A stretch of 64,000 bases of DNA from an uncultured delta proteobacterium (GTDB taxonomy: Bacteria; Desulfobacterota; Binatia; Binatales; Binataceae), in NCBI GenBank assembly GCA_963724765.1, contig CAVRVY010000002.1:416001-480000 (forward strand), written 5' to 3'. The position numbers were made by a program, and so were the translations under genes. Positions 7,892-51,634 of the stretch are shown piece after piece; the first letter of the stretch is position 1; each line of letters starts with the position of its first letter. The notes beneath the pieces are model-generated. The model was given only the letters and a program-made list of their open reading frames with translations, did no database searches and was not told the DNA's origin.

Positions 7892-8006
7892 GCGATGGAT
7901 TGCGCGCCGACGGCTGCGGCCTCGTGCGCGCGTTGAATCCTAGCTATCGCGCGCGCCGCCGAATCGCAACCGGCGATTCGCCGGTCGCGTTCGCAGCGAG
8001 GCGGCC

Positions 8007-8618: not shown

Positions 8619-8631
8619 CGTAATCCGTCGC

Positions 8632-9309
8632 TCAGCCTTTACGCCGCCGCCGCAGTCTAAGCCGCCGCCATCCGCCGAACACCGCCCCCGCGAGCAGACC
8701 CACCAGCGCGGCATCGCCCCAGGTGCGCCCGCGATTCCAGGCTTCCCCGCCGGCGGCGGGCGCGAGCTGGAAGGTGGGACTCATCCGAACCATCACGACG
8801 TGGCAGTCAAAGCAGGCCATCCGGCGCAGGGGATGAGTTATACCACCGTGCCAGAAGGCCTCGTCATGGCATTGGAGACAGGCCCGGTTGTTGCGCTCAA
8901 TCGACTGTCCGCGATCGATTCGGAACTCCGCCATCCCTCCGACGCCTAGGCCGCCGCCCGATTCGGCGTGATCGCTGGCCGGCCCATGGCATCCCTCGCA
9001 ACCCTTGCGCTCGAGGTCGTTTTGCGGCTTGACCAGGAATAGCCGGCCCATCTTGGTGCGGGCGAATTCGAGCGACAACTCCTGGTGGCAGGCGTAGCAG
9101 TACACGGTGCCGACGTAGTGGGGTGGCCGCCGCCTGGCGCCGGAGCTTTCAGTTGTCACGCCGCCCGGGTTGGCTTGCGCCACGGTGCTGTCCGGCGCGG
9201 CCAAGGTCTCGCCGAGCGGCACAAGCGCGAATGCCAACAGCGACAGCGCCAAGGCGCCGATGATAAAGCTTGCCGGTGTCGCGCGGACGGCTATTCGATT
9301 TTTATTCAT
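8632..9309 (-). CDS. Periplasmic tetraheme cytochrome c with C-terminal membrane anchor
   Basis: Signal peptide; CYACH, CEGCH(GP), CLQCH, CFDCH; C-terminal TM followed by Arg-rich tail. Confidence 0.8.
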   Translation of the reverse strand: MNKNRIAVRATPASFIIGALALSLLAFALVPLGETLAAPDSTVAQANPGGVTTESSGARRRPPHYVGTVYCYACHQELSLEFARTKMGRLFLVKPQNDLERKGCEGCHGPASDHAESGGGLGVGGMAEFRIDRGQSIERNNRACLQCHDEAFWHGGITHPLRRMACFDCHVVMVRMSPTFQLAPAAGGEAWNRGRTWGDAALVGLLAGAVFGGWRRLRLRRRRKG

Positions 9310-9818
9310 CGGCCGAGCCGTATCGCGCTCCACGCGCGCGATCGGGTGACAGCCGGTTCTGACCTCTTTGCCGCCGTTCGTCAACGGTTTGCCCAACCCA
9401 TCGATGCAGTCAGGAGCTTCTTGCCCGGTTCCAGCGTTCATTGTCCGGTAGGCATTGATGGGGCCGGTGCTTGGCGACAGCGTCTAGATCAGTTATGCGT
9501 TGGGACCGGTTAAATGGTTTTCTTTGAGGGTCCGAACTGAGCAAAGTCGGCTTGAATAATTTTGAGCAAATTTTCGCTTCGGCAAATGTTTGCATTGTTA
9601 AGCGACCGTGCGGTAGGTTTGCGCCGAGGAATCAGGATATTAGCCGCGGGAGCGCCGCGAATTAATTTTTTGAAGTTTGATTTCGCGCGACGAGGTGCTG
9701 CAAGAAGCCGTGTGCGATCGGCTTGGACAAGCTGCCTTTGTGTCGGGCAAGCGCCCGGCGGCCTAGCATTCTGATCGGCCTTTGGGAGGCTGGAACTGAG
9801 AATTTGGCAAGCTTTAGT

Positions 9819-9834
9819 TGGCATCTGCATTGCT
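9819..9834 (+). promoter_or_regulatory. sigma54 (-24/-12) promoter
   Basis: TGGCATCTGCATTGCT with exact GG-N10-GC spacing, ~85 bp upstream of the DUF1329 start, in an AT-rich intergenic region. Confidence 0.7.
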
Positions 9835-9920
9835 TCGGGCTGAGCGAATTGAACAAGAGATTAAGGTCTTCGTTAAATTCCCGTGACGAGAGACCTCTAT
9901 ACGGGGAAGGGGTTATAGCC

Positions 9921-11291
9921 ATGGCTCGACGTTTAATCGCCGTCGCCGGATTGTTAGGCGTCGCTCTGTTGCTGGGGGCAATGCCCTCGCCGGCGCATGC
10001 GCAGCCTGCTCCCTGGCAGGCCGAGAAGGGGTACGAGAACGGAATTCCGATCGGCACCAAGATCACTCAGGCGAACTGGCAGCAATACCAGCAGTTTATG
10101 CCCGAGAGCATGATCCATCTTTTCAAGGGCGACCTCTTCTGGCACATGCCGGCGAATGTCGAGATCGACGTCGGTCCCACGCGTCACATTTTCCCGCCCA
10201 AGCCGTTCAATGAAGACACCGAGAAGTACGGCAGCCAGACGTCGTTGGTGAAGACCTCGGATGGCGGCTACCTGCCGAAGGGCTACGTTGGCGGATTCCC
10301 GTTCGCCAATCCGTTCACGGGCGATAAATCCGAAGTGGGCGCGAAGATGTACTACAACAACTACTACCGCCCCGCCCCGGTCGTGGAGGAGGCCCCCAAC
10401 TGCTCCTACACCCTGGACAAGTACGCAAACTTCACCCGCACTGCCGACTCGAACATCGTCTTTTCACAGCTCACCCATCTGAGTGAGCCTGGGTATCCGC
10501 GGGAATTGCCGGGCAACAATGGCTACTTCTTCGCTGCATATTTCGAGCAGACCGCTCCCGAGCAGGGTAAGTATTTCGCCTCGCTCGACATGACCTGGAA
10601 CGACCCGGCCGTGCTGGATGAGCTTTACGAATACATCCCGAGCCTCAGGCGCTCACTGCGTGTCTCCCAGGCGGCGCGTTGCGCACCGATCTTCGGTACC
10701 GACATCGTGTACGAAGACGCCCAGGAAGGGGCTCCGCGGATGGGGAACCTGTTCAACAACGTGTACCTCGGTGAAAAGAGAATTCTCAACCTCATGCACG
10801 GAGCTCCCGCCAGCTTCGATACCTGCGGCACGCCTACCTCGCTCGATCCCCGGTATTATTACTTTGGCCTCAAAGGCGTGGTGCCGTTCCCCAATCCAGG
10901 CTCGGGTGAATGGGAAGTCCGCAATGTGTATATGGTGGAGATGACGCGGCTTCCCGCGGTCTCTCGCGGTTACTGTTACGGTAAGCGCCTGCTGTACCTC
11001 GACAAGGAGAACTATTTCCCTGACCAGACCGAGGTTTGGGACCGGGCGGGGAATCTTTACAAATGGATTGTGGTGCTTGCCTACCCGGCGATTCTCCCGG
11101 GTCTTGGCCTGGAGGGCCAGGAAGTGACGATAACCGGACCGAACACCGCGTATGTCGTGAATTTCCAGGATGAGCACGCGACCGTTTTTATCGGTCTGCA
11201 CGTATGCGTGGACCACGAGTGCGACGCCCAGGGGTTCTCGAACGTTGATCGGTATGCGCAGCCTGACGGCCTGATGAAGATTATGCAGTAG
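9921..11291 (+). CDS. DUF1329 family periplasmic protein
   Basis: Signal peptide; IT..NWQQY, GFPF, YIPSLRRSLRVS, YGKRLLYLDKE, DRAGNLYK. Confidence 0.8.
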   Translation: MARRLIAVAGLLGVALLLGAMPSPAHAQPAPWQAEKGYENGIPIGTKITQANWQQYQQFMPESMIHLFKGDLFWHMPANVEIDVGPTRHIFPPKPFNEDTEKYGSQTSLVKTSDGGYLPKGYVGGFPFANPFTGDKSEVGAKMYYNNYYRPAPVVEEAPNCSYTLDKYANFTRTADSNIVFSQLTHLSEPGYPRELPGNNGYFFAAYFEQTAPEQGKYFASLDMTWNDPAVLDELYEYIPSLRRSLRVSQAARCAPIFGTDIVYEDAQEGAPRMGNLFNNVYLGEKRILNLMHGAPASFDTCGTPTSLDPRYYYFGLKGVVPFPNPGSGEWEVRNVYMVEMTRLPAVSRGYCYGKRLLYLDKENYFPDQTEVWDRAGNLYKWIVVLAYPAILPGLGLEGQEVTITGPNTAYVVNFQDEHATVFIGLHVCVDHECDAQGFSNVDRYAQPDGLMKIMQ

Positions 11292-12464
11292 ATGGGCCGG
11301 CAGGACGGTGCGGCTCAGCGAAAGGGCGCGCGTAGCGCGTGGGAACGTTTGATGGGCTTGGTGTCGCCTGAAAAGGCAGAACTGCCCGCCTCGCATTCGG
11401 ACCAGGCCCGGGGCAAGGAACAGACCCCGCGAGCGCTCCGATGCAGTCTGTCGGCACTGGTACTGATGGCGGCGGCTGTGATGTTGGTGTTTCCAATCGC
11501 GGTGGCCGCGGCCCCCGCCCCCGCTGCGGACAACAGCTCGAACCTGGCCCGGCCTTGGGATTCATTCTTCAGCGTTGCGTATCTGCCCTCTGGCAAATGC
11601 TACGTCGTCGGAGCGGAGGGCGCGCTGCTGACCTCGACCGATGGTGGACAGAACTGGCAGCGGCGCGCGATCGCCGAGCGCGGCGATCTATCCTGGTCCG
11701 ACCTCTACAGCATCCGTTTCGCCAGCGACGGGCAGACCGGATGGATCGGCGGTGAGGGCGGGCTGATCCTCAAAACTACCGATGGCGGCCAGACCTGGAA
11801 CCCTCAGACGAGCGGCACCACTGAGAACATCTTTCGCATCGCGGTGGTCGACCCGCGAACCGCTTATGCTTCCGGCTCCAACGGCCTGCTGATGGGCACA
11901 ACTGATGGCGGTGCGCACTGGCAGTCGCAAACCCTCAAGAGTGGTCTCATCTTCATGGATATCGCGTTCGCCGACGCGCAGAACGGATGGGCGGTGGGCG
12001 AGTTCGAGACGATCATGCATACCGTCGACGGCGGTAAGACGTGGACCGCGCAGATGGGCGGCAAGCGGGCCAACTTCAAACTGCCGGCGCTGTTTGCGAT
12101 TAGCTTCAGCGACGCGCAACACGGATGGGCGGCGGGGCAGGGCGGCACGCTTCTGCGTACTGACAACGGCGGCGCAACCTGGCAACCCTTTGCCTCACCT
12201 TCAGCGTCCCCGATGTATAGCGTCGCTTACGCTGGCGGGACGTCAGGCTCCGCGCCGTCGGAGTTGTGGGGCTCCGGCGAAGGCGGCGTGCTGCTGGGCG
12301 TCGGGCTTGGCGGCGCCGCCGCACCCGTCGTGAAGACGCCAACGGTGTTCGATCTGGCCGACGTCGCGTTCAATGGACAAAATGGTGTCGCGGTCGGGCT
12401 TGGCGGCACAATCGTGCACACCGCCAACGGCGGCGCACATTGGGAAGTGGTGACAGGAAAGTGA
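11292..12464 (+). CDS. YCF48-like BNR-repeat beta-propeller protein
   Basis: Repeated S/TxDGGxxW Asp-box motifs and GWAVG/GWIGG blades. Confidence 0.85.
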   Translation: MGRQDGAAQRKGARSAWERLMGLVSPEKAELPASHSDQARGKEQTPRALRCSLSALVLMAAAVMLVFPIAVAAAPAPAADNSSNLARPWDSFFSVAYLPSGKCYVVGAEGALLTSTDGGQNWQRRAIAERGDLSWSDLYSIRFASDGQTGWIGGEGGLILKTTDGGQTWNPQTSGTTENIFRIAVVDPRTAYASGSNGLLMGTTDGGAHWQSQTLKSGLIFMDIAFADAQNGWAVGEFETIMHTVDGGKTWTAQMGGKRANFKLPALFAISFSDAQHGWAAGQGGTLLRTDNGGATWQPFASPSASPMYSVAYAGGTSGSAPSELWGSGEGGVLLGVGLGGAAAPVVKTPTVFDLADVAFNGQNGVAVGLGGTIVHTANGGAHWEVVTGK

Positions 12465-14854
12465 TGGGCCGGTTCATACTGCGCTATCGCGCGATAATCG
12501 GGATAGCCTTGCTGGTGATCACGGGCATCTTTGGCTACTACGCGAGCAAGCTCACGATCGGCACCAGCTTCATCGACTTTTTTCCCAAGAACCACCCCTA
12601 CGTCAAGCTCTACCACGAATACGAACGCTACGGCGGCGCGCAACGGCTGACCCTGATGGTTCAGGTCAAGCACGGGGACATCTTCAACTATAAGACGTTA
12701 AGAAAAATCCAGGACATCAGTTACGACGTCGACCTGCTGCCCGACGTCAACCACCAATCGATCCGCTCATTGGGATCCTTCCGTGTGCGATACGCGGTCG
12801 CGCTGCCGGGCAATCTCGTCTACAAGGCCTACATGTATCCCAACGTCCCGACCACGGGGGCGGGGATACAGGAGATCAAGCGCGAAATTTTCATCCATCG
12901 CCTGGAGATGCGCAGTCTGGTGAGCGATGACGGGCGCAGTGCGGCGATCATGGCCTCGTTCTATGAGGGCCGGCTCAACTATCGCGAGGTCTTCAACAAG
13001 ATCCAGGCGCTCATAGCCAAGTACCAGGATGACAACACGGTCATCTATGCCGCCGGCGAACCGATGATCCGCGGCTACGGGTATTACTACCTGCCCATGC
13101 TCGTGACGATCTTCTTCATCTCTGACGGCATCATGATCCTGATCCTATACATCTTCTTCAGAGGCCGCAGCACCTGGTGGGCGCCGCTCATCACCGGCCT
13201 GTTGTCGACCGTCTGGGGCCTCGGATTCATCGGGATGCAGGGCTACGAGTTCGACCCGGTGATGCTGGTCATACGATTTATATTGACCGCCCGCGATATG
13301 AGCCACGGCATCCAGTGGCAGGGCCGCTATTACGACGAGCTTGAAACGCACGGCCACGACAAGATGGCCGCGTGCGAAGTAACGACCACCCTGATGCTGC
13401 CGCCGGGCTTGCTCGCGATCCTGGCCGACATCGCGGGCATCGTCTTCATCTCCTTCGGCGGCATCCCGTCGCTCCAGCACGTGGCCTCCTCGGGTGCGGT
13501 ATGGCTGGGCGGCAGTCTCACGATGGTCTTCATCTTCCAGCCGATCATGATGAGCTATCTGCCTACGCCCAAGCCACTGCCGCCGGCTAAGGCGAAGCGG
13601 GGATGGCTGACGTTGGTCGAGGACAAGCTGGTCGAATTCCCGATCACGCCCGGCTATGCGCGCGAGGGTGCTTTGATAGCAGTCGGCGTGCTGATCGTTG
13701 TGGGTTTCGTCGCAGGTGTTCGGGCCAAAATCGGCTATACGGAACCGGGCACGCCGCTTTACCGGCACAATGCCAAAGTCAACCAGGATATCAATGCGGT
13801 GCGGCAGGTGTTCCCGCTGGATGAGGGATGGCTAATCGTGCGGGCGCGAGCGTCGACTACTATCAGCGCCGCCTACACGCCCGATATGCTCGCGCCCGAC
13901 GTGATCCGGCTGCAGCGTGACCTCGGACGCTTCCTGCTGGAGGATCCTAAGGTCTCGAGCATTATTTCGGTCGCGCCGGACATAATCGAGCCGTACAACC
14001 AGATGTTCCACTACGGCTATCCGAAATACCTGGCGGTGCCGCGCACCGCAGACGACGCGATGGGCCTGTACTTCCTGTTTATGCAGGGGACTGCGCCGGG
14101 AGAGGCCGAGCAATGGATCAACTTAAACACCAACGACGGAATCCTGCGCGTGCTGCTCGCGGATCACACTTACCAGACGCTCAATAACATCCAGGCGCGG
14201 CTGGCCGAATTCGTCCGCCGGCGTGCCAAATGGGATCCGGCGTACAAGAAAGTCGAGATCGTGTACTTGGGCGGCGTAGCGGGCCTCTATGCCGCGGCCA
14301 ATGATGTGCTCTACCAACTCGACTTCATCAACATCACGTTTGTGCTCGGCGTGGTCTTCCTGTTCTGCGCCGTAGTCTACCGCTCGCTGGTGGCCGGAGT
14401 GTTGTTCGTGGTGTCCTGTATCGCGGCGAACTTTTCTGCGTTTATCTACATGCGGCTGGCGGATATCGGCATCACGATTGACACGATACCGGTTATCTCG
14501 CTGGGTATCGGTCTGGGCGTGGACTACGGTATCTACGCGGTCTCCCGCATCTGCGACGAGTGCGCCGAGGGCAGGCGGCTGGAGGATGCCATCACGACCG
14601 CGCTAAGAGGCACCGGCGCCGCCGTGCTGGCGACCTTTTCGGTCATCGTCGGCGGCTTGGCGCCGTGGGTATTTTCCCCGGTGCTGTTCCATAACGAGAT
14701 GAGCGTATTGCTGATTATCCTGATGTCGACCAATGTGATCGTGGGGCTTTTGATACTACCGGCGTATATAGCGTGGGCGCGCCCGCGCTTCATTTTCGGT
14801 GGCGTTGCGGAGGAAGAGTTACGCAAGGAAACGATGGCTGCGGCTTCAAATTGA
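12464..14854 (+). CDS. MMPL/RND-family inner-membrane transporter
   Basis: Duplicated 1TM + periplasmic + 5TM architecture; GIGLGVDYGIY; start overlaps the upstream stop. Confidence 0.88.
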   Translation: MGRFILRYRAIIGIALLVITGIFGYYASKLTIGTSFIDFFPKNHPYVKLYHEYERYGGAQRLTLMVQVKHGDIFNYKTLRKIQDISYDVDLLPDVNHQSIRSLGSFRVRYAVALPGNLVYKAYMYPNVPTTGAGIQEIKREIFIHRLEMRSLVSDDGRSAAIMASFYEGRLNYREVFNKIQALIAKYQDDNTVIYAAGEPMIRGYGYYYLPMLVTIFFISDGIMILILYIFFRGRSTWWAPLITGLLSTVWGLGFIGMQGYEFDPVMLVIRFILTARDMSHGIQWQGRYYDELETHGHDKMAACEVTTTLMLPPGLLAILADIAGIVFISFGGIPSLQHVASSGAVWLGGSLTMVFIFQPIMMSYLPTPKPLPPAKAKRGWLTLVEDKLVEFPITPGYAREGALIAVGVLIVVGFVAGVRAKIGYTEPGTPLYRHNAKVNQDINAVRQVFPLDEGWLIVRARASTTISAAYTPDMLAPDVIRLQRDLGRFLLEDPKVSSIISVAPDIIEPYNQMFHYGYPKYLAVPRTADDAMGLYFLFMQGTAPGEAEQWINLNTNDGILRVLLADHTYQTLNNIQARLAEFVRRRAKWDPAYKKVEIVYLGGVAGLYAAANDVLYQLDFINITFVLGVVFLFCAVVYRSLVAGVLFVVSCIAANFSAFIYMRLADIGITIDTIPVISLGIGLGVDYGIYAVSRICDECAEGRRLEDAITTALRGTGAAVLATFSVIVGGLAPWVFSPVLFHNEMSVLLIILMSTNVIVGLLILPAYIAWARPRFIFGGVAEEELRKETMAAASN

Positions 14855-14948
14855 ATCGGGGATGCCGCCGCTGCATCCGCACGCCGCAAGGACGCGGCGG
14901 CGCGGCAAGCGGCGCGGCACGCGGCCACGAGCCTCGGGAGGGGTAGGT

Positions 14949-16694
14949 ATGAAACCCATTCTAAAAAGCCGTTCCGGACTGCTTTTGGCGGTGGCTATGA
15001 TGATCGCGCTGGCGTGCCTCGGCGCGACAGGAGGTTCGGCGCTGGCGCAGACCGCCGGTGGCGGTTCTCAGCCGCCGGCTGTGCCGCTTTGGAAGAGCGC
15101 CGTGCTGGGCAGCAGCGCGCCGTTCATCGACGTAAGTGAGCAACCGGGGTGGTTGCAGGGCCTGTCAGTCTCGGGCTTTATCAGCAATACCACCGGGATG
15201 TGGGTCGATTCCGCCGGTATCCGCTATCAGAAGAGCAAGAATTCGCTGGCCACCGAGCGCAACTGGGTCCAGTTGGACCTCAACTACATACTCAACGGCG
15301 ACAACCGGTTTTTCATTCGCGGATGGGGTGTGTACGAGCCGCCCTACCCATTCGAGTACAAGGCCGGCATGACCGACATGTCGGATTACTACAACCAGTA
15401 CAACGTCAGGGACGCGTACTGGAAGAACACCACCGGACCGCTGACGTTTTTTGTAGGCCGCCAGATCGTGACCTGGGGCGAGTCGCTGGCCTTCCGTGTG
15501 GGCGACGTGATCAACCCGCAGGATTTTACCTGGAACTTCGGCTTCTCCAACCTCGAGCAGTCGCGCTTGCCGTTGTGGATGGTGCATCCGATCCTGAACC
15601 TCCCGAGCTGGGGGCCATTGGGCAACAACTTCATCGAGGGAGTTTGGACGCCGGCCTGGCAGCCGATGTATAACCCCTCGGTCGATACTCCGAATCAGGA
15701 TTCCAATCCCCACAGCAACTGGTATGACGGCCAGCACGACGTCGCCGGTTCGGTTTCGCTGCTTGCGCCGTTCACTTTGGTCTCGGCGGCTCGGTTCCAG
15801 GTCCAACCCTACCCGCTGCTGTTCGGGACGCCCGGCGTTCCGGCAAACATGACGGCCTTTCCGCAGCTGCGAGGGTCCAGCTTTGCTCCGCCGTTCTTCT
15901 CCTATCACCTGCCGAGCGATACGCTAGGCAGTTCAACCGAAGGCTTCCGAATCCATACGCTGGTGAAGAACGCTGAGATCACGCTGCTCTATTGGCATGG
16001 TCATCAGTTCAACGAGGGCGGGACGCCGGGCGCGCCATTCTACGTCATGGGCAGCCCTTCCACGGGCCAGTACCTGCAGGCCTACTTTCCCCAGTTCAAC
16101 GACATCGGCGCGACGCTGAACCGGCCGATTTATCTGCCCGGTGAAATTCTCTCAAGCGTACCGATCGTGCTCAGGACCGAGGCGGTGTGGCAGGACCGGA
16201 CACCGTTCAACACCACCGACGTGTCGGTAACCAACGGGGTGGTCGATAAGAACACGATCAATTCACTCGTCGCGCTGGACCTGGACGGCCTCTATGCGCC
16301 GTGGCTGACCAAGACCGGTACGCTGAGCGGCAACCTCGAATGGAACCAGTACACGATCGTGGGCTATGGCAAAAGCCTGGTCTACGATTTCTATGCTGAA
16401 CGCTATCGCCACAACGAAGAGCAGCTCCTGATCAGCGTCAACACGAGCTGGTGGTGGGGCGCGATCTTGCCAACTTACACCATGATCTGGAATCCCTCTG
16501 GCGACACCTCGCTGCTGTTCCCGACCCTGGTGCTGACGCCGCCCTGGACCAACAAGTACTTCGCCACTCTCGGCTACGTCGGCATCCTCGGCAATGACAA
16601 GTTCAACTCGTTTTCCGGCGGTGTCTTCAAGGGCAAGAGCATTCTGTATATGCAGTTCCAGTACAACTTCCAGCCCGTCAAAGGACGCAGCTGA
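14949..16694 (+). CDS. DUF1302 family outer-membrane beta-barrel
   Basis: Signal peptide, VRDAY..GRQIVTWGE..DVINP.D motif, terminal QFQYNF. Confidence 0.8.
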   Translation: MKPILKSRSGLLLAVAMMIALACLGATGGSALAQTAGGGSQPPAVPLWKSAVLGSSAPFIDVSEQPGWLQGLSVSGFISNTTGMWVDSAGIRYQKSKNSLATERNWVQLDLNYILNGDNRFFIRGWGVYEPPYPFEYKAGMTDMSDYYNQYNVRDAYWKNTTGPLTFFVGRQIVTWGESLAFRVGDVINPQDFTWNFGFSNLEQSRLPLWMVHPILNLPSWGPLGNNFIEGVWTPAWQPMYNPSVDTPNQDSNPHSNWYDGQHDVAGSVSLLAPFTLVSAARFQVQPYPLLFGTPGVPANMTAFPQLRGSSFAPPFFSYHLPSDTLGSSTEGFRIHTLVKNAEITLLYWHGHQFNEGGTPGAPFYVMGSPSTGQYLQAYFPQFNDIGATLNRPIYLPGEILSSVPIVLRTEAVWQDRTPFNTTDVSVTNGVVDKNTINSLVALDLDGLYAPWLTKTGTLSGNLEWNQYTIVGYGKSLVYDFYAERYRHNEEQLLISVNTSWWWGAILPTYTMIWNPSGDTSLLFPTLVLTPPWTNKYFATLGYVGILGNDKFNSFSGGVFKGKSILYMQFQYNFQPVKGRS

Positions 16695-16740
16695 GGCTTA
16701 GGCAGGAATCGTAGGTTGGACCTGCAAGGGAGTAAGTGAG

Positions 16741-17895
16741 ATGGCGAAACGGACCGTATTCATCATCGCAATCCTGCTCGCCCTGTCGGCCTGGTGTAGG
16801 TCCGGCGCGCTGGCCCAGATGCCGCCTGAGGAGGGCGTCAAGGTACGCGAGTTGCCGCTGCCCGGACCACACTGGGTATTCGTGATGAATCCGTTCAGCG
16901 GCACGCTGGAAGTCACCAGCGTGTTCGTCATCGACGGCGATTCGCTCCAGGTGCTTGGTCAGATGACCGGTGGAGTGGTCAGCGCATTCGCGATCGCGCC
17001 GGACCACAAGCAGTTCTACATGGCCGACACTTACTACTCGCGCGGCGCGCGCGGCGATCGCACTGACGTACTGACTATCTATGAGGCGCGTCACCTGGCG
17101 CCGGTCGGTGAAGTGATTCTTCCGACCAAGCGCCAGCTTTCGATACCCGACAGCTCGCAGCTCTCGGTCACGCCGGACGGCCGCTTCGTATTGGTCGCCA
17201 ATCTGACTCCAGCGACGTCGGTTAGCGTGGTCGATATCCAGAACCGCAGCGTCGCCGGCGAGATCGAAACTTCCGGATGCGCCGAAGTCCTGATCGCCGG
17301 GCCGCGCCGCTTCGTTTCCATTTGCAGCGACGGCACGATGATGACCACCGAATTCAACGACAACGGCAAGGCGACGGCGCAAAAGCGCACCGCCAAGCCG
17401 TTTTTTGACATCGAGAAGGATCCTGTCTTCGGGGTGCCGGCGCGAGTTGGCGACGACGCCTACTTCGTCAGCTATCATGGGATGGTCTACCCGATGAACC
17501 TCGGGGCGAACCCGGCCGAGCCGGGCCAGTCCTGGTCGTTGCTCAGCGACAGCGAAAAGACGGCGGGATGGTTGCCGGGCGGCTATCAGCCGATTTGGGC
17601 CAACGCCGCCAAGGGCTTGCTGTTCGTCCTGATGCATCGCGGCGGCGGCGACTGGACGCATAAGAACCCGGGCACCGAAGTGTGGGTGTACGACGTGAAG
17701 ACACAAAAGCGGGTCGACCGGATCGCGCTGCCGCAGAAGGCCAACTCCATTCTGGTCACCCAGGACGATGCCCCGACGCTGTTCGCCCTGAGCACGATGC
17801 CCGCCATGATGCAGGCGTTCTCCGCACTGGACGGCAGGTATCTCGGCGCGATCCAGGATCTGTCGGGTGTCCCGTGGGAGATGTTCGGGCTCTGA
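16741..17895 (+). CDS. mauB: TTQ amine dehydrogenase heavy subunit
   Basis: TYYSRGARGDRTD, NLTPATSVSVVD, GC..C.DG, W.PGGYQ, LMH..THK.PGTEVWVYD. Confidence 0.9.
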   Translation: MAKRTVFIIAILLALSAWCRSGALAQMPPEEGVKVRELPLPGPHWVFVMNPFSGTLEVTSVFVIDGDSLQVLGQMTGGVVSAFAIAPDHKQFYMADTYYSRGARGDRTDVLTIYEARHLAPVGEVILPTKRQLSIPDSSQLSVTPDGRFVLVANLTPATSVSVVDIQNRSVAGEIETSGCAEVLIAGPRRFVSICSDGTMMTTEFNDNGKATAQKRTAKPFFDIEKDPVFGVPARVGDDAYFVSYHGMVYPMNLGANPAEPGQSWSLLSDSEKTAGWLPGGYQPIWANAAKGLLFVLMHRGGGDWTHKNPGTEVWVYDVKTQKRVDRIALPQKANSILVTQDDAPTLFALSTMPAMMQAFSALDGRYLGAIQDLSGVPWEMFGL

Positions 17896-17927
17896 TGATT
17901 GAGCTTTAAAGTTACGCACGGAGAGCG

Positions 17928-18476
17928 ATGCCTCAGATCGACCCAGTACTCGTATGGATGGCCGTGGTCTCGGCTGCGGCCATCTTCGTCGCGTCGGGGG
18001 CGCTCAAGTTCTATGACCTCGAAACCTTTCGCGGCGCGGTGACCAATTACCGCCTGATTCCCGAGTGGCTCGCGACGCCCTTTGCCTGGACGGCGCCGGT
18101 GATCGAGTGCGCCGCGGCGCTGGGCCTGCTGCTGAGCCCGATCCGTGAGTCCGCGGCGCTGGTGTTGATCGTGCTGCTCGGGGTCTTCACGGGTGCGATC
18201 GTTATCAATCTCGCGCGCGGCCGTACCGATATCGACTGCGGATGCTTCGGCCCGGCACTGCGCCAGCGGCTGAGCTGGTGGCTGCTGTTGCGCAACGCAG
18301 CGCTGTTTGCGCTGCTCGCGATCGCTCTGATGCCCGCCGGTGCGCGAGCCATGGACTTTCTCGACCTCGCGACCGCCGGCATGGCGGCTGCCACGGTGGT
18401 GGTGCTCTATACTGCCGCCAACTATCTAATCGCGAACGCCCCCGGGCTTCGCGCGCTGGGTGCGCTAAATGCTTGA
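17928..18476 (+). CDS. mauE: Methylamine utilisation membrane protein MauE
   Basis: INLARGRTDIDCGCFG, LLRN, 4-5 TM. Confidence 0.9.
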   Translation: MPQIDPVLVWMAVVSAAAIFVASGALKFYDLETFRGAVTNYRLIPEWLATPFAWTAPVIECAAALGLLLSPIRESAALVLIVLLGVFTGAIVINLARGRTDIDCGCFGPALRQRLSWWLLLRNAALFALLAIALMPAGARAMDFLDLATAGMAAATVVVLYTAANYLIANAPGLRALGALNA

Positions 18477-19191
18477 AGCGTTGGTGATTTCGCAGATTCT
18501 GCTGTGGGCGCTGGTGCTGGCGATGGCGCTGATGATGCTCGCGCTGTTGCGCCAGGTCGGCGTCCTGCACGAGCGGATCGCGCCGATGGGCGCGCTTACG
18601 CTGGACCGCGGGCCCAAGGAGGGCGAGGCCGCGCCGCTGTTCGAGGTCAAGGACCTGCGCCGCGGCACGCCGCTCAAGATCGGCGGCGCACGCGGCCGCA
18701 GCATGCTGCTCTTTTTCCTCTCCCCGACCTGTCCGGTATGCAAGAAACTGCTGCCGATCGTCAAATCGATCCAGCAGTCCGAGAACTCATGGCTCGACGT
18801 GGTTCTGACCAGCGACGGCGAACCGGTCGAGCACGAACGCTTCATCCGCGTGCAGCATCTCGAAGACTTCCCCTACGTGCTCTCGGCCGACGTCGGCATG
18901 ACCTACCGGATCGGCAAGCTTCCCTACGGCGTCATGATCGACGACTCGGGTGTGATCCGGGCCAAGGGATTGCTCAACACGCGCGAGCACCTGGAGAGCC
19001 TGATCGAGGCCAAGCAGATGGGTGTTCCATCGATCCAGCAGTTCCTTCAATCTAGGCAGCCCGAGGGCCACGAACCGCACGATCACCCGCACGACGATGG
19101 ACACGATCACTCGCACGATCGTGTAGATGACCACGCGAACAACCACGAAGCCCCATCGCTTGCCGCAACCGGCAAGAGCGGACGCAAATAG
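18469..19191 (+). CDS. mauD: Thioredoxin-like maturation protein MauD with His-rich tail
   Basis: RQVGVLHERIAPMGAL, SPTCPVCKKLLP, KGLLNTREHLESL. Confidence 0.92.
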   Translation: MLEALVISQILLWALVLAMALMMLALLRQVGVLHERIAPMGALTLDRGPKEGEAAPLFEVKDLRRGTPLKIGGARGRSMLLFFLSPTCPVCKKLLPIVKSIQQSENSWLDVVLTSDGEPVEHERFIRVQHLEDFPYVLSADVGMTYRIGKLPYGVMIDDSGVIRAKGLLNTREHLESLIEAKQMGVPSIQQFLQSRQPEGHEPHDHPHDDGHDHSHDRVDDHANNHEAPSLAATGKSGRK

Positions 19192-19218
19192 GCCGAAAGA
19201 CGGGCAAGGAGACGAACA

Positions 19219-19746
19219 ATGGACTCCCTGATGGAACAGCTGACCCGCACGGTCGCGCAGCGCACTTCGCGCCGTGGCTTCCTGGCCCGGATGGGCAAAT
19301 TGATGCTCGGGGGGATGGTCCTGCCGCTTTTGCCAATCGATCGCGTGATGGGGAGCGCACAGGCGCAGATGACGATGGGTGCGACCGGCACCGGACGCAC
19401 TGACGATCCCTCGACCTGCGACTACTGGCGCTATTGCGGCTTCGATGGGAACCTATGCGGCTGCTGCGGCGGCAGCCATACCGAGTGCCCCGCCGGCACT
19501 ATCATGTCGCCGACCTCGTGGGTGGGCACCTGCCGGGATCCCAACGACGGCAAGGAATACATAATTGGCTATCGCGACTGTTGCGGCAAAGACGTATGTG
19601 GCCGCTGCTTTTGCGAAAATAACAAGGGCGACATGCCCATTTACCGGACTCAACTGGATAACGGAGTCATCTGGTGCTTCGGAACAAAACCTTCATCCTA
19701 CGTCGTCAACTGCACGACGGCCGTCCGACTCGGTCTCAAAACCTGA
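19219..19746 (+). CDS. mauA: TTQ amine dehydrogenase light subunit, copy 1
   Basis: Tat signal SRRGFL; CDYWRYC, SWVGTC (TTQ Trp), YRDCCG (catalytic Asp), IWCFG (cross-link Trp). Confidence 0.92.
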   Translation: MDSLMEQLTRTVAQRTSRRGFLARMGKLMLGGMVLPLLPIDRVMGSAQAQMTMGATGTGRTDDPSTCDYWRYCGFDGNLCGCCGGSHTECPAGTIMSPTSWVGTCRDPNDGKEYIIGYRDCCGKDVCGRCFCENNKGDMPIYRTQLDNGVIWCFGTKPSSYVVNCTTAVRLGLKT

Positions 19747-20231
19747 GTCCTCGTACCTGGCTGATTGCGGCCGCGTGCGCGGTCGTGCTCTCGGCGGGCG
19801 CAGCCACCGCGCAGGCGGACGGCCACAACGTCTTCATCTCGAATTGCGCCGTATGCCATCAGCCCGACGGCAAGGGCGCGCCCTCGGTTTATCCGCCGCT
19901 GGCCGACTCGGTAGGCCGCTATGTGGCGCTCAAGGATGGCCGCGCCTACATTATCGACGTGGTGTCGTTCGGGATGGGCGGCAAGATCGAATCCGACGGC
20001 GACAGGTTCGAGGGCGACATGCCGCCGTGGCCGCAGTTGAGTGACCAGGACGTCGCCGAGGTGCTCACCTACGTCCTGACGGGCCTCAATTCCAAGCTGC
20101 TGCCCGCGGATTTCAAGCCGATCTCCGCGGACGAAGTCAAAGCGGAGCGCGCCAAGCAGCTTACCGCCGCCGGCATCCATGCCGAGCGCGAATCGCTGCT
20201 TAAAAAGCTGGACAGCAAGGCCGCGAAGTAG
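19743..20231 (+). CDS. Monoheme cytochrome c
   Basis: Signal peptide, CAVCH, G.G...YPPLA, MPPW. Probable CTG start overlapping the mauA stop. Confidence 0.85.
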   Translation: MSPRTWLIAAACAVVLSAGAATAQADGHNVFISNCAVCHQPDGKGAPSVYPPLADSVGRYVALKDGRAYIIDVVSFGMGGKIESDGDRFEGDMPPWPQLSDQDVAEVLTYVLTGLNSKLLPADFKPISADEVKAERAKQLTAAGIHAERESLLKKLDSKAAK

Positions 20232-20245
20232 GACGCGCGCCTGCG

Positions 20246-20722
20246 ATGAAACCGCGCGCTATCGCCGTGCTGATCGCCGCGCTCTCGATTGCGAGCACCG
20301 CGCTGGCCGGCGGCTCGCCGGCCGAGCTGTACACGCTCAACTGCTGGGGCTGTCACAAGCCACGCGCCGAAGGCATACCCGGCACCGTTCCGCGCCTGGC
20401 GGACTCGATGGCGGATTTTCTGCATGTGCCCGGCGGACGCGAGTATCTTGTCGAGGTGCCGGGCGTAGCGGCCTCTGCGCTGAGCGATGCCGAAATCGCG
20501 CAGGTGCTCAACTGGCTGCTCTTCAACTTCAACAAGGCCGAGATGCCAGCGGATTTTAAACCTTACACCGCTGCCGAGATCGCACGGGTCCGGCCGCATC
20601 AACTGATTCGCATTACCGAAACCCGCGACGACCTGGTCAAACGGCTAAAGGCCAAAGGCATAATCGTCCCCGACGACCAGCTTGCGGGCGAGGCGCTCGC
20701 GACCCCGCTCGCGCAGCACTAA
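20246..20722 (+). CDS. Monoheme cytochrome c
   Basis: Signal peptide, YTLNCWGCH, GGREYLVEVPGV, LSDAEIAQVLNW. Confidence 0.85.
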   Translation: MKPRAIAVLIAALSIASTALAGGSPAELYTLNCWGCHKPRAEGIPGTVPRLADSMADFLHVPGGREYLVEVPGVAASALSDAEIAQVLNWLLFNFNKAEMPADFKPYTAAEIARVRPHQLIRITETRDDLVKRLKAKGIIVPDDQLAGEALATPLAQH

Positions 20723-20867
20723 CGGAAGGTGCCCGGGCCGCGGGGCCGCGTGGCGGAGCAACTGGCATCGCGGGGCGGGCGATGCTACTGGAAACGCTGG
20801 CAGGAGCGCAGCGGGAACCGGCCTTGGGGATTCCGGGGGCGCGCCTGGCGAAACAGGAGACGGGCGA

Positions 20868-21389
20868 ATGGACGCACTGGTGGAACGTCTTTCACGAACG
20901 GTGGCGCAGCGGACCTCGCGGCGCGGCTTTCTGGGCTACCTGGGCAAGGCGCTGGTGGGCGGGATGATGATTCCGCTGCTGCCGATCAACCGGGTGGTGG
21001 AACAGGCGCAGGCGCAGATGAGCGAGGGGCCCACGGCGGAGGGCGAGGGGGGCGATCTGACGAGTTGCGATTACTGGCGCTACTGCGGCTTCGACGGCTA
21101 CCTGTGCAGTTGCTGCGGCGGGGCGCTGACTTCGTGTCCGCCGGGGACGGTGGCGTCGCCGACCTCGTGGGTGGGGACGTGCCAGCATCCGACCGACGGC
21201 AAGGAATACATCATCGCGTACCGGGACTGCTGCGGTAAGGACGTATGCAACCGCTGCTTCTGCGACAACAACAAGGGGCAGGTGCCGATCTACCGGCCGC
21301 AGTTGGACAACGACATCATCTGGTGCTTCGGGGCCAAGAACTTCGCCTACCACTGCACCACGGCGATCCGATTGGGCGTCAAAACCTGA
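20868..21389 (+). CDS. mauA: TTQ amine dehydrogenase light subunit, copy 2
   Basis: RBS AGGAG; Tat SRRGFL; CDYWRYC, SWVGTC, YRDCCG, NDIIWCFG, YHCT. Confidence 0.92.
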   Translation: MDALVERLSRTVAQRTSRRGFLGYLGKALVGGMMIPLLPINRVVEQAQAQMSEGPTAEGEGGDLTSCDYWRYCGFDGYLCSCCGGALTSCPPGTVASPTSWVGTCQHPTDGKEYIIAYRDCCGKDVCNRCFCDNNKGQVPIYRPQLDNDIIWCFGAKNFAYHCTTAIRLGVKT

Positions 21390-21460
21390 CCGCTTGGCTT
21401 AGGCTGTACTTTCTGACCAGCGCGCGCCGCTGAGCGCGCCGGCGCGCGGCCGCAACCGGT

Positions 21461-22888
21461 ATGGACGAACGCAAATTCGCCGAGGCCCTGGAACGTGCGT
21501 CCGCGTGGGTCGTGCGCTACTTCGAGCGTACGCGCGAGTTCCCCGTGCTGTCGCAAGTGCACCCGGGCGAGGTCGCCGCCGCGATGGGGCCCGCGATGCC
21601 GGAGGAGGGCGAAGACTTCGACGCCCTGCTCGACGACTTCGAGCGCATCGTGGTCCCCGGCATCACGCACTGGAACCATCCGCGCTTTTTCGCCTACTTC
21701 TCGATCACCGGCTCGGAGCCGGCCGTGCTGGCCGAGTTGCTCGCCGCAGCGCTCAACGTCAACGGGATGCTGTGGCGGACCTCGCCGGCGGCGACCGAGG
21801 TCGAGGAGGTCGCGCTCAAGTGGCTGCGCGACGCGCTGGGCCTGCCGCCGAGCTTCTTCGGTGTGGTGTACGATACCGCCAGCGTCTCGGGGCTGCATGC
21901 GCTGGCGGCCGCGCGCGAGTCGCTCGGGCTTGACGTGCGCAATCTCGGCACTGCGGGTCGCGATCTTCCGCGCCTGCGCGTCTACTGCACTGACCAGACC
22001 CACTCGCACATAGAGAAGGATGCGATCCTGCTCGGCGTGGGCCGCGAAAACGTGGTCAAGATCGCAACCGACGGTGCGTTCAGGATGGACCCGGCAGCGC
22101 TCGACCGCGCGATCGCTGAGGATCTCGCGCGCGGCTTTTTGCCGATGGCCGTGGCGGCAACGGTGGGCACCACCTCGACCACCTCGGTCGATCCGGTCGC
22201 CGCGATCGCCGAGGTCTGTCGCGCGCATCGCATATGGCTGCACGTCGACGCCGCCTACGCCGGGCCCGCGGCGATCGTGCCGGAGTTGCGCTGGCTGCTC
22301 GACGGCGCCGCGGCGGCCGACTCGCTGGTGGTCAATCCGCACAAGTGGATGTTCGTGCCAGTCGATCTTTCGATCCTCTACACCCCGCATGAGCCGCTGC
22401 TGCGCCGCGCGTTCAGCCTGATCCCGGCCTACCTCGAGACGCCCGAGAGCGAAGTGCGCAATTACATGGACTACGGCGTGCAACTGGGCCGGCGCTTTCG
22501 CGGCCTGAAGCTGTGGTTCGTGCTGCGCGCATACGGGCGGCGCAGGATGGTCGAGATAATCCGCAGCCACGTCGCCTGGGCGCAGGAACTGGCACGATGG
22601 ATCGGTGAGGCCGGCGATTTCGAAACCCTGGCGCCGCATCCGCTGTCGGTGGTCTGCTTCCGGCACCTGCCCGCGGGGCTTGCGCAAAGCCCCGGCGCGC
22701 TTGACCAGCACAATCAGCGCGTGGTCGACGAGATCAACCGCGGCGGCTTCGCGTTTCTCTCAACCACGCGGCTTAACGAACGCGTCGCGATACGCTTCGC
22801 GATCGGTAACGCGCGCACCACGGTCGCCGACCTGCGCGAGACCTGGGATCTGTTGCTGACCACCGCCCGTCGTCTCGCCAACGCCTGA
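21461..22888 (+). CDS. Group II PLP-dependent (aromatic L-amino acid-type) decarboxylase
   Basis: PGITHWNHPRFFAYF, SPAATE.E, GTTST..VD, WLHVDAAY, NPHKW, LGRRFRGLKLW. Confidence 0.9.
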   Translation: MDERKFAEALERASAWVVRYFERTREFPVLSQVHPGEVAAAMGPAMPEEGEDFDALLDDFERIVVPGITHWNHPRFFAYFSITGSEPAVLAELLAAALNVNGMLWRTSPAATEVEEVALKWLRDALGLPPSFFGVVYDTASVSGLHALAAARESLGLDVRNLGTAGRDLPRLRVYCTDQTHSHIEKDAILLGVGRENVVKIATDGAFRMDPAALDRAIAEDLARGFLPMAVAATVGTTSTTSVDPVAAIAEVCRAHRIWLHVDAAYAGPAAIVPELRWLLDGAAAADSLVVNPHKWMFVPVDLSILYTPHEPLLRRAFSLIPAYLETPESEVRNYMDYGVQLGRRFRGLKLWFVLRAYGRRRMVEIIRSHVAWAQELARWIGEAGDFETLAPHPLSVVCFRHLPAGLAQSPGALDQHNQRVVDEINRGGFAFLSTTRLNERVAIRFAIGNARTTVADLRETWDLLLTTARRLANA

Positions 22889-23436
22889 TCGCGCGGCCCT
22901 TGCGACCCGCGAGCGTGGCGAACCGGGCGGGGCTCGGCCGACGCCACGCTGCTGGAGCGGATGCTCTCGGCGGCGGCCCTCTGCGACGGATCAATTGGCA
23001 GAGCTGGGGAGTGCCCAGCGCCGCTGCCGTTCGGCAACGCATCGCAGCCGCTGGCGCAACTCGTGGTTGCGATTCAGCGCTGGTTTGCGCCTGAAGCCGC
23101 GTGGCGTGACAATCAACAGTCAGGCGCGACGCTAGGCTGCATGACACGCGAGATAAAAACTTGCAAATCGAATAAGAATAAGATTGACAAATTAGAATCA
23201 AACCAGCGAAATAGAGGATCAAGAAAACTCGGCGGAATTCGCATGCGGTAGCTGCCTGGGATCGAACATCGCTTTTCTGATCCTTGAAGGAGACTGCTTC
23301 GGACGGTCTTTGTCTAGCAGATTGCGTCTATGAGGGGTTTAACTATTGTAAGAGGCGGAGACTTCTGATAAATGTCTCTGCGTTACGCTTTGATGCGGGC
23401 AGGGCAGCAAATTACTAGGTTAAAGGAAGGCGCACG

Positions 23437-24384
23437 ATGAAGAGTAAGTGGACAACCCTTATAGCGGCATTTTTTGGTCTTTCGGTCGGGCTTGTCTTAA
23501 TGGGCTCGCAGGTCGCTTGGGCCAAGGTCGCTCGTCCGTTTGTGGGGGCAGTAGATCCCACGAATGTCTCCGGCTGCACGACGCTCAGCGGGAATGGCAC
23601 CATCTATCTGTTGACGCAGAACATCACTACTACTGGTACCGGCAACTGCATCGTTGTCAGCGGCCATGACGACACCCTGGATCTCCAGGGTTTCAATATC
23701 ACGGGACCTGGCGACTCCTCGAACGGAGATGGAATTAGGATTACGGGTAGCGAAAACGTGATTGAAGGTTTTAATGGCACCATCTCCGGGTTTGCGGTGG
23801 GCGTGTACGATGTCGGAGCGAACACCGCCGGCGATGGGATCAACGTCGAATCAAACACAGTCGGGCTGGAGATGGCCGGATCGGGCGAAGCAACGGAAAT
23901 TTGGACCAATTTTTCCGCGGACGGTAACAGCGAGCAGGGGGTCTACCTCAAAAGTTGTGGCGATGAGTGCAGCATTAGCGACTTCGACGCGTCGAATAAC
24001 GGCGCCGATGGCTTGCTCATAACGGGTTCGGAGGGACCGAGGATCAGTATCTTCACGGCGCTTGACAATGGCGGTGACGGCGTGCACGTAGGCTGCACGT
24101 CCGGTTGCGGCAGCAATTCCGAGGTCAAAGTCGGCGACGCGCCCATCGGGATTACGACTACGCCTGCGATTAGCGGAAACGCGGGTGACGGAGTTTTCCT
24201 GGATGCAAGCGAGTCGAGCAACCAGGACCAGGTCTACGTCATGAATTCGACTGGCAATGGCGGGATCGATCTACACGATGCGAGCAGCACGTGCGGCAAC
24301 AACCATTGGGTTCACAACAACTTCGGTACGTCCAAGGCCGGCTCTGTGACGAGTCCCAGCTGCATTCCGCTGAGCCCGTTCTGA
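23437..24384 (+). CDS. Secreted right-handed beta-helix repeat protein
   Basis: Signal peptide, LDLQGFNITG, repeated N..DG(V/I) rungs, Cys pairs, CGNNHW..NNF. Confidence 0.75.
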   Translation: MKSKWTTLIAAFFGLSVGLVLMGSQVAWAKVARPFVGAVDPTNVSGCTTLSGNGTIYLLTQNITTTGTGNCIVVSGHDDTLDLQGFNITGPGDSSNGDGIRITGSENVIEGFNGTISGFAVGVYDVGANTAGDGINVESNTVGLEMAGSGEATEIWTNFSADGNSEQGVYLKSCGDECSISDFDASNNGADGLLITGSEGPRISIFTALDNGGDGVHVGCTSGCGSNSEVKVGDAPIGITTTPAISGNAGDGVFLDASESSNQDQVYVMNSTGNGGIDLHDASSTCGNNHWVHNNFGTSKAGSVTSPSCIPLSPF

Positions 24385-51488: not shown

Positions 51489-51634
51489 TGTCGCTTTTGA
51501 TTCCAAATGCGTGTACGCCTGGCTTTCGGCCGGCGAATCGAATGGCGGGTTATCCACAAGGTCGGGAGACCTCCGTTGTTATGTACTCCTCTTACCGCAT
51601 GGAATGGCTTCTGTTCAATCTTCGGCTGCATGGC

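Follow-up and report, generated by a model that had tools for sequence, protein, structure and literature searches.

The window analyzed here, a 64,000-nucleotide stretch of the genome of an uncultured member of the Binataceae (positions 416001-480000 of contig C2 in genome G000, which comprises 5.4 Mb in four contigs), carries an operon that points to the breakdown of aromatic amines, not to the methylamine use assumed for the phylum. Its twelve genes, all on the forward strand between positions 9921 and 22888, combine an envelope cassette, a tryptophan tryptophylquinone (TTQ) amine dehydrogenase module, and an amino-acid decarboxylase. We propose that the operon encodes a pathway in which aromatic or other hydrophobic primary amines are oxidized in the periplasm and the electrons pass to cytochrome c. 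The amines would be supplied in part by decarboxylation in the cytoplasm, and an Ame-type envelope system would carry the amine or its aldehyde. We put the probability of this reading at about one half. It is built on features read directly from the DNA, namely gene content, a shared promoter, localization signals, a non-canonical cluster type, and gene linkages. Sequencing runs containing this DNA, as found with positions 14000-23000 as query, are metagenomes of peat, soil, and sediment; the listing includes no RNA run.

Pfam and NCBIfam scans recovered the families and order named by the original prediction, which had also placed the twelve genes behind a -24/-12 element. The envelope cassette comes first. 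It consists of a DUF1329/LolA-like periplasmic protein (AmeB-like, 9921-11291) with a signal peptide, matches to PF07044 (78 bits) and PF17131, and a weak PDB match to 3bk5; a BNR/Ycf48-like beta-propeller (AmeC-like, 11292-12464; PF14870 (PSII_BNR), 128.6 bits), the start of which is uncertain (11292, 11352, or 11466); a HAE3/MMPL-type resistance-nodulation-division (RND) inner-membrane transporter (AmeD-like, 12464-14854; PF03176), which scores 119.9 bits to TIGR00921 against a cut-off of 351.9 and weakly matches the PDB entries of MmpL4, MmpL5, and MmpL3; and a predicted outer-membrane protein of family DUF1302 (AmeA-like, 14949-16694; PF06980, 34.2 bits) with a signal peptide. The dehydrogenase module follows, with the type-I heavy chain mauB (16741-17895; PF06433 (Me-amine-dh_H), 164 bits; Sec signal), the membrane maturation protein mauE (17928-18476; PF07291, 102.9 bits), the thioredoxin-like maturation protein mauD (18469-19191; TIGR02661, 238 bits, above the cut-off of 188.6), and the small subunit mauA1 (19219-19746; PF02975 (Me-amine-dh_L), 154 bits). 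Two monohaem cytochromes c with signal peptides (both PF00034) are encoded next, cytochrome c1 at 19743-20231 (CAVCH) and cytochrome c2 at 20246-20722 (CWGCH). A second small-subunit gene, mauA2 (20868-21389), and a group II pyridoxal phosphate (PLP) decarboxylase (21461-22888; PF00282 (Pyridoxal_deC), 297.5 bits) complete the operon. All periplasmic parts have signal peptides, those of MauA1 and MauA2 being twin-arginine leaders; the decarboxylase has no leader and is therefore predicted to be cytoplasmic.

Gene starts were set from the sequence, signal peptides, and ribosome-binding sites. The DUF1329 start was corrected to the ATG at 9921 (the longest open reading frame (ORF) began at TTG 9723), the MMPL start to ATG 12464, which overlaps the BNR stop codon by 1 nt, the DUF1302 start to ATG 14949, and the mauA2 start to ATG 20868. 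Downstream of the mauA1 stop there is no ATG, GTG, or TTG at which cytochrome c1 could begin. Its start is probably CTG 19743, overlapping the mauA1 TGA stop (CTGA), and this arrangement is kept in nine relatives. Four relatives have one or two additional tandem copies of cytochrome c1, these with an ordinary ATG start. Intergenic gaps within the operon range from -8 to 145 nt.

The dehydrogenase module belongs to a cluster type that reads mauB-E-D-A and then two small monohaem cytochromes c (BEDA + 2 cytochrome c); both Pfam and NCBIfam recognize the heavy- and light-chain genes with mauE and mauD between them. Canonical methylamine dehydrogenase (MADH) clusters, as on plasmid 1 of Paracoccus denitrificans PD1222 and in Methylobacterium sp. 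DM1 and Indioceanicola, read mauF-B-E-D-A-(amicyanin)-J-G and include napG/H-like genes. With the mauFBEDACJGMN clusters of P. denitrificans and Methylobacterium the window shares the heavy- and light-chain families, the mauB-E-D-A order, and the TTQ tryptophans and catalytic residues. However, it has two cytochromes c in place of mauF, amicyanin, mauJ, mauG, and mauMN, none of which the Pfam scan found in its cluster, and it also differs in its low heavy-chain equivalog score, the replacement of alphaPhe55, a sigma-54-type promoter, and the linked RND cassette and aromatic decarboxylase. These accessory genes are absent from all three TTQ loci of the genome. Each of the four cupredoxin (PF00127) genes is separated from the nearest TTQ locus by more than 100 kb, and the sole MauG/MbnH-like gene of the genome, which falls below both family cut-offs, is on another contig (C4:1288861). 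Seventy-six related loci were recovered with MauA2 as query (tblastn threshold E <= 1e-5, at least 50% coverage); at none of them did tblastn find mauF, amicyanin, mauJ, mauG, or mauM within 10 kb, a search that a small divergent amicyanin could escape.

The same gene order occurs in Cupriavidus, Novosphingobium, Pseudomonas aeruginosa RW109, Haematobacter, Paracoccus sp. SMMA_5, and Chimaeribacter, the records of which label the proteins "amine dehydrogenase", and it recurs in many proteobacterial metagenome-assembled genomes (MAGs). It resembles the cluster type of aromatic amine dehydrogenase (AADH), since the AADH-like cluster on plasmid 1 of strain RW109 also reads BEDA and then c-type cytochromes, with neither amicyanin nor mauG. 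The aau cluster of Alcaligenes faecalis presumably has the same composition. The substrates proposed here are those of AADH, but the clade and the light-chain motifs of the enzyme differ. Azurin is the reported acceptor of AADH. The neighbors of the module vary: an amidase or aldehyde dehydrogenase adjoins it in other Binatia clades, and in Cupriavidus an aldehyde dehydrogenase is directly 3' and MMPL and YCF48 genes are 5 kb upstream. All 120 matches listed in a protein search with MauB are Binataceae relatives. Such proteins are annotated as methylamine dehydrogenase (JGI) or amine dehydrogenase (NCBI), and the Binatota survey, in the passage concerned, counts Binatales mauA and mauB under methylamine degradation and names amicyanin as the likely acceptor (PMC8262859). 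The expectation that the cluster would be labeled as methylamine use is thereby borne out.

Heavy-chain phylogenies indicate that the dehydrogenase is neither canonical MADH nor AADH, and place it in a separate Binatia clade whose sister group, with moderate support, is canonical MADH. A quick LG+G4 tree of 90 MauB rows (four of 94, shorter than 340 residues, were dropped) unites all Binatia heavy chains in one clade of 41 rows, with a Shimodaira-Hasegawa-like approximate likelihood ratio test (SH-aLRT) support of 99. The canonical MADH clade has a support of 100 and the window MauB falls outside it. A second tree of 40 rows was inferred by a quick search under a site-heterogeneous posterior mean site frequency (PMSF) model. 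AADH is represented by a proxy, the P. aeruginosa RW109 clade, the light chain of which scores 166 bits to that of A. faecalis AADH; no A. faecalis sequence is among the tree rows. Family scores differ between the chains. Against the PDB, the heavy chain scores 193.6 bits to AADH and 145 bits to MADH, whereas the two light chains score higher to MADH than to AADH (180 vs 131 bits and 202 vs 148 bits). The heavy chain reaches 179.8 bits of the 454.45 set as the equivalog cut-off of TIGR02658; for the light chains (TIGR02659, cut-off 196.85), MauA1 is just under at 196.2 bits and MauA2 passes at 215.6.

At the active site, Trp57 and Trp108, which we take to form TTQ, and Asp32, Asp76, and Thr122, presumably catalytic, are kept in both MauA1 and MauA2, with betaIle107 as in MADH; Tyr119 is replaced by Val in MauA1 and retained in MauA2. 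Residue numbers were verified with P. denitrificans MauA (locus L093). The light chains read IWCFG and V/Y-N/H-C-T where AADH has NWCMAN and F-H-C-T. On the heavy chain, alphaPhe55 (precursor F86 in P. denitrificans, in agreement with the expected numbering) is Phe in all three canonical sequences, whereas each of the three Binataceae paralogues has a Gly there and one inserted residue; the site lies in a loop region in which the alignment is moderately sure. Zhu, Sun and Davidson reportedly found in 2000 that this residue acts as a gate setting the preference for small amines. The alphaF55A change reportedly turns MADH into a long-chain amine dehydrogenase.

The decarboxylase is the only PF00282 gene in the genome, and comparison with known structures supports its assignment to the aromatic L-amino-acid decarboxylase group, as the original prediction had supposed. 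Its first PDB relative is the 3,4-dihydroxyphenylalanine (DOPA) decarboxylase 7xin (372 bits, full-length), followed by plant tyrosine, aromatic, and tryptophan decarboxylases and then by animal DOPA decarboxylase and histidine decarboxylase. Each of the best 14 PDB relatives is an aromatic acetaldehyde synthase or a DOPA, tyrosine, tryptophan, or aromatic decarboxylase, with much lower scores for the decarboxylases of glutamate, cysteine sulfinate, and diaminobutyrate. When the protein is aligned with 7xin and 6eei, it is seen to keep the PLP lysine (NPHKW), a histidine (THSH), and the catalytic-loop tyrosine, the last of which distinguishes decarboxylases from aldehyde synthases. The protein passes no NCBIfam equivalog. 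It thus resembles 7xin and the plant tyrosine and tryptophan decarboxylases over its full length and in its key residues; what sets it apart is its partner, a TTQ dehydrogenase.

Linkage between the decarboxylase and the TTQ genes is retained within the genus of the window (g1). A family-wide search of 151 genomes gave 40 with any decarboxylase match, including G072, which has only a 29%-identity paralogue and on which no claim rests. Orthologues occur in 13 of the 16 other g1 genomes (at least 83% identity) and in four of five genomes of genus g3 (about 76-80%); outside these genera only paralogues of at most 37% identity were found, the lone stronger match (45%) being a second copy in a g1 genome. 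In all 13 g1 genomes the decarboxylase lies directly 3' of TTQ-cluster genes, which are cytochrome c2 with or without mauA2 in 12 and a mauB'-mauA2 pair in one. At L027 and L112 it follows the mauB'-mauA2 of the second pair; recombination between the two copies may have produced this arrangement incidentally, and it was therefore not counted as independent linkage. Among the type-I loci of relatives, the decarboxylase is directly downstream in 10 of 12, and no gene 3' of the decarboxylase is conserved among the type-I loci compared.

Genus g3 shows a different linkage. A BNR-MMPL pair stands immediately 5' of the decarboxylase in all three g3 loci in which the upstream DNA can be read. This pair ends a cluster encoding a catechol 2,3-dioxygenase (409 bits to 5znh), a second extradiol dioxygenase, a FAA-hydrolase-family protein, an aldehyde dehydrogenase, two short-chain dehydrogenases/reductases, a Rieske hydroxylase, and an amidohydrolase. 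A homoprotocatechuate (dopamine/tyramine) pathway was considered for this cluster and dropped, because the first dioxygenase is a catechol 2,3-dioxygenase and scores only about 70 bits as a homoprotocatechuate dioxygenase. In the g3 genome G002, a complete DUF1329-BNR-MMPL-DUF1302 set in the order of the window precedes mauB-E-D, and its MMPL protein is 63% identical to that of the window, compared with 53% for the copy adjacent to the decarboxylase. Three pairings are therefore seen: cassette with TTQ genes (g1 and g3), TTQ genes with decarboxylase (g1), and RND pair with decarboxylase (g3).

The four adjacent, co-oriented families of the cassette form the AmeABCD set as defined in a passage of PMC6394551. 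Passages of the same paper report that deletion of AmeABCD in Castellaniella defragrans lowers monoterpene tolerance, that AmeB is required for growth on monoterpenes, and that DUF1302 has an outer-membrane role, and they describe HAE3 pumps as moving substrates into the periplasm. According to the relevant part of 10.1101/072470, Shewanella and Pseudomonas show co-fitness of DUF1302, DUF1329, BNR, and RND genes, and phenanthrene, p-cresol, and steroid clusters contain DUF1329 genes; an esterase role has also been suggested (10.1101/2020.07.04.188060). The window shares with these systems the four families and, through the sources just cited, an association with hydrophobic or aromatic catabolism. 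It differs in its order, B-C-D-A instead of A-B-C-D, and in that the cassette shares an operon with a periplasmic amine dehydrogenase; the literature passages on AmeABCD-type systems link no amine to them. The description of the cassette as poorly characterized holds insofar as its function is still debated, but it overlooked that the AmeABCD type is recognized. The cassette lies upstream in eight of the relatives' 12 type-I loci; in the other four the divergent tetrahaem cytochrome gene abuts mauB. Comparison of L018 and L028 with window positions 9835-9920 and 16720-16741 suggests a clean deletion or insertion of the four cassette genes, with a short GGGA-like overlap as the junction.

A putative sigma-54 promoter precedes the operon. 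The -24/-12 element TGGCAT-N5-TTGCT at 9819-9834 (+) is the sole match to TGGCAYN5TTGCT on either strand of the 64-kb window, where 0.08 are expected and 7 of 100 shuffles gave at least one. Between 9300 and 24500, where 3.8 sigma-70-like sites would be expected, none was found. The genome has a single rpoN gene and about 28 genes for enhancer-binding proteins (EBPs), the activators of such promoters. Nine of the 12 type-I loci of relatives have the motif at the equivalent place: it precedes DUF1329 in L029-L034 and directly precedes mauB in the cassette-less L018, L028, and L035. The sequences of L016 and L017 begin inside the cassette, and L019 has no strict match. When ten promoter regions are aligned, conservation extends over two blocks upstream, the -24 and -12 elements, between which the spacer varies, and the leader. 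The first block (9590-9621, +), TTGATTGTTAAGCGACCGTGCGGTAGGTTT, is kept in the window and L029-L035 and is a candidate activator site; the second (9731-9759, +), which reads GCTGCC...GGGCAAGCGCCCGG and contains a short inverted repeat, is present in all ten aligned loci. The 5' leader (9835-9920, +) is also kept where the cassette is absent, being fused straight to the mauB ribosome-binding site in L018 and L028. A riboswitch in the leader was considered and rejected, as it has no Rfam match and folds no better than shuffled sequence (z -0.83).

The retention of promoter and leader directly before mauB in cassette-less relatives indicates that the TTQ genes use one promoter whether or not the cassette stands in front of them, and it is the best available argument for co-transcription. 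Because promoter and leader are conserved, the gaps are short, and TTQ-cluster genes immediately precede the decarboxylase in all 13 other g1 genomes with an orthologue, the 12 genes probably form one transcription unit. The original prediction that the envelope, TTQ, and decarboxylase modules are linked and co-transcribed is upheld to this extent. Conservation of the linkage is seen within g1; in g3 the genes are on separate contigs, and in some relatives the cassette is missing.

The second small subunit appears to be a late addition. The 660-bp segment at 20734-21392 (+) that contains mauA2 corresponds, at 96% nucleotide identity, to the small-subunit gene of another TTQ pair of the same genome (L005) with its upstream spacer, and MauA2 differs from that small subunit at one residue. 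The mauA2 gene is a recent duplicate of the small subunit of the second TTQ pair; the idea that it is a designed second subunit was rejected, given this near-identity. A copy is present at this position in L016-L019, L104, L106, and L110 and absent from L029-L035 and L136. At L105 (G130:C8), a 19-codon 3' remnant of mauA2 between cytochrome c2 and the decarboxylase indicates that the inserted gene has been lost again in one lineage. In total the genome has three heavy-chain and four light-chain genes. The two further mauB-mauA pairs, at C2:289800-291640 and C1:132100-133960 (L005 and L006), lack mauE, mauD, cytochromes, and other mau genes; one of them adjoins an IS1595 transposase and a phage-type repressor. 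The mauD in the window is the only above-cut-off match in the genome, so the mauED set of the operon probably matures the other two TTQ dehydrogenases as well. A type-III Binataceae-like mauB-mauA pair was also noted on a 9.4-kb contig of a Pseudolabrys sp. MAG record (L042); its end branch of 0.084 lies inside the Binataceae clade, and its presence in an alphaproteobacterial bin would reflect either mis-binning or recent transfer.

The substrate class, direction of transport, electron path, and fate of the aldehyde are predicted as follows. The decarboxylase would convert an aromatic amino acid (tyrosine, phenylalanine, DOPA, or tryptophan) to the arylethylamine. Delivery of the amine to the periplasm would most likely fall to the HAE3 RND protein, because this family is described as moving substrates into the periplasm in the passage of PMC6394551 on these pumps. 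There, the TTQ enzyme would oxidize it to arylacetaldehyde and ammonium, and two electrons would pass through the two cytochromes c to the respiratory chain. The DUF1302, DUF1329, and BNR proteins would handle the hydrophobic amine or aldehyde between both membranes. The same module may also accept amines of external origin. The arylacetaldehyde would then be oxidized, and its ring degraded, by the products of genes elsewhere in the genome. The more specific idea of a shunt that decarboxylates inside, hands out, and oxidizes outside, in which the HAE3 RND protein and its partners serve as a dedicated conveyor of arylethylamine to the TTQ enzyme and not as detoxifying efflux, is put forward tentatively, as possible but doubtful.

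Several observations weigh against aromatic amine oxidation fed in part by the decarboxylase. The decarboxylase and TTQ genes are adjacent in one genus only, as the g3 TTQ genes are on contigs other than that of the decarboxylase. All relatives compared are close kin, and the counts thus reflect retention within one family, not independent events. The cassette is missing from four of the 12 type-I loci and is therefore dispensable. Neither an aldehyde dehydrogenase nor an amino-acid or amine transporter gene is present in the operon; no EBP gene adjoins it, the nearest in the window being at 50118-51557; and we know of no RND pump that moves arylethylamines. The strongest counter-evidence is the combination of a MADH-like light-chain active site with the sister position to MADH. 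Light-chain positions 32, 57, 76, 107, 108, and 122 carry the same residues as in MADH, MauA2 agrees with it at all nine active-site positions compared, and a small-amine substrate is accordingly possible. The original prediction had named a phylogeny against MADH and AADH as a check, and the trees do not place the heavy chain with AADH. The window MauB falls outside the AADH-proxy clade, from which all other sequences are separated by branch lengths of 0.96-1.21, and the nearest named clade is canonical MADH (three sequences), sister with SH-aLRT 95 in the first tree and 92 in the second.

These last findings are also the main case for the function as annotated, that of a methylamine or short-chain alkylamine dehydrogenase serving C1 or nitrogen metabolism, with cassette and decarboxylase as unrelated passengers. 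The preference of the light chains for MADH in the PDB, the passage of MauA2 above the TIGR02659 cut-off, betaIle107 and the MADH-like catalytic residues, the JGI name, and the counting in the relevant passage of PMC8262859 all agree with it. We nevertheless consider this function quite improbable. All three TTQ loci lack amicyanin, mauF, mauJ, mauG, and mauMN, and the cupredoxin genes are remote from them; the heavy chain falls far below its equivalog cut-off (180 against 454 bits) and has not retained alphaPhe55. That one genome encodes three diverged heavy chains suggests that several substrates are served, and the way in which dehydrogenase, aromatic decarboxylase, and hydrophobe pump recombine in three pairings speaks against unrelated passengers. 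It is unlikely, though a closer contender, that the enzyme oxidizes hydrophobic or aromatic amines of external origin only. In that case, the cassette would import them across the outer membrane or protect the envelope, the decarboxylase would be a side feeder or serve another purpose, and nothing would be exported from the cytoplasm. Ame-type cassettes do occur in catabolic islands for hydrophobic substrates (passages of PMC6394551 and 10.1101/072470), and AmeB is needed for monoterpene growth in the former. Furthermore, 64 of the 76 related TTQ loci have no decarboxylase match, and three of the four type-I loci without the cassette retain the decarboxylase. Set against this, the decarboxylase directly follows TTQ-cluster genes in every g1 genome with an orthologue, and its place directly 3' of the RND gene in g3 would be difficult to account for if the product had no contact with the envelope system. 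A biosynthetic role, in which an amino acid would be converted through its amine to an arylacetaldehyde for a secreted product such as the auxin indole-3-acetic acid and the cassette would serve as exporter, has very little probability. The reaction logic permits it, and the DNA does occur in peat, soil, and sediment metagenomes. However, the operon has no aldehyde oxidase, aldehyde dehydrogenase, or tailoring gene, the g3 decarboxylase lies in a degradative ring-cleavage cluster, and cytochrome-c-linked periplasmic dehydrogenases are typical of energy-yielding catabolism. Nothing in the analysis supports the route from tryptophan through tryptamine to indole-3-acetaldehyde that the original prediction gave as its example.

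Three genes diverge from the operon promoter at 7322-9441 (-), encoding a tetrahaem cytochrome c, a TmcC/HmcE-like subunit, and a lipoprotein-like ORF. The membrane-anchored tetrahaem cytochrome (8632-9441, -) has four CxxCH motifs, and its gene stays beside the promoter in relatives, cassette or no cassette; the TmcC/HmcE-like membrane anchor subunit (8007-8714, -) scores 62.6 bits to NF045723 against a cut-off of 240 and has a third-position G+C fraction (GC3) of 0.88. Membership of both in the system is uncertain, and they could provide an electron route into the membrane. A NapC/NirT tetrahaem gene and a cytochrome c also occur near the TTQ cluster of L039, from another genus. Beyond the operon, after an AT-rich gap of 548 nt, lies the gene for a secreted Gly/Asn/Thr-rich protein of 315 residues (23437-24384, +) with no Pfam or NCBIfam match; it is not retained beside the decarboxylase in relatives. 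Upstream, at 3775-4913 (+), a histidine kinase appears split into a HisKA+PAS ORF (3775-4629) and a HATPase_c ORF (4485-4913) that overlap in different frames, the result of a frameshift or an error of assembly. Its neighbors are genes with MetOD1, receiver, and MEDS domains.

Each part of the operon is of a known kind. The combination is new, as is the proposal that Binataceae mauAB are not canonical methylamine genes; full-text literature searches returned one unrelated review and no paper linking TTQ enzymes with an amino acid decarboxylase, or Binataceae with an amine dehydrogenase. To our knowledge, only two TTQ dehydrogenases, MADH and AADH, are understood. The locus is a member of a large, uncharacterized set of BEDA + 2 cytochrome c modules without amicyanin or a linked MauG, and a substrate-generating enzyme and a transport system beside the module provide definite candidate substrates and partners. 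It also offers a testable role for the DUF1302/DUF1329/BNR/HAE3 cassette, the function of which is debated. One line of the published case for Binatota as broad methylotrophs is called into question, since the mauAB genes counted there, in the passage concerned (PMC8262859), do not form canonical MADH clusters here. Should the tentative shunt prove true, amino-acid deamination would feed cytochrome c directly, CO2 and NH4+ would be released on opposite sides of the membrane, and a single mauED pair would mature three TTQ enzymes without a linked MauG. The mauAB genes of Binatota would then mark the respiration of aromatic or hydrophobic amines, not methylamine methylotrophy.

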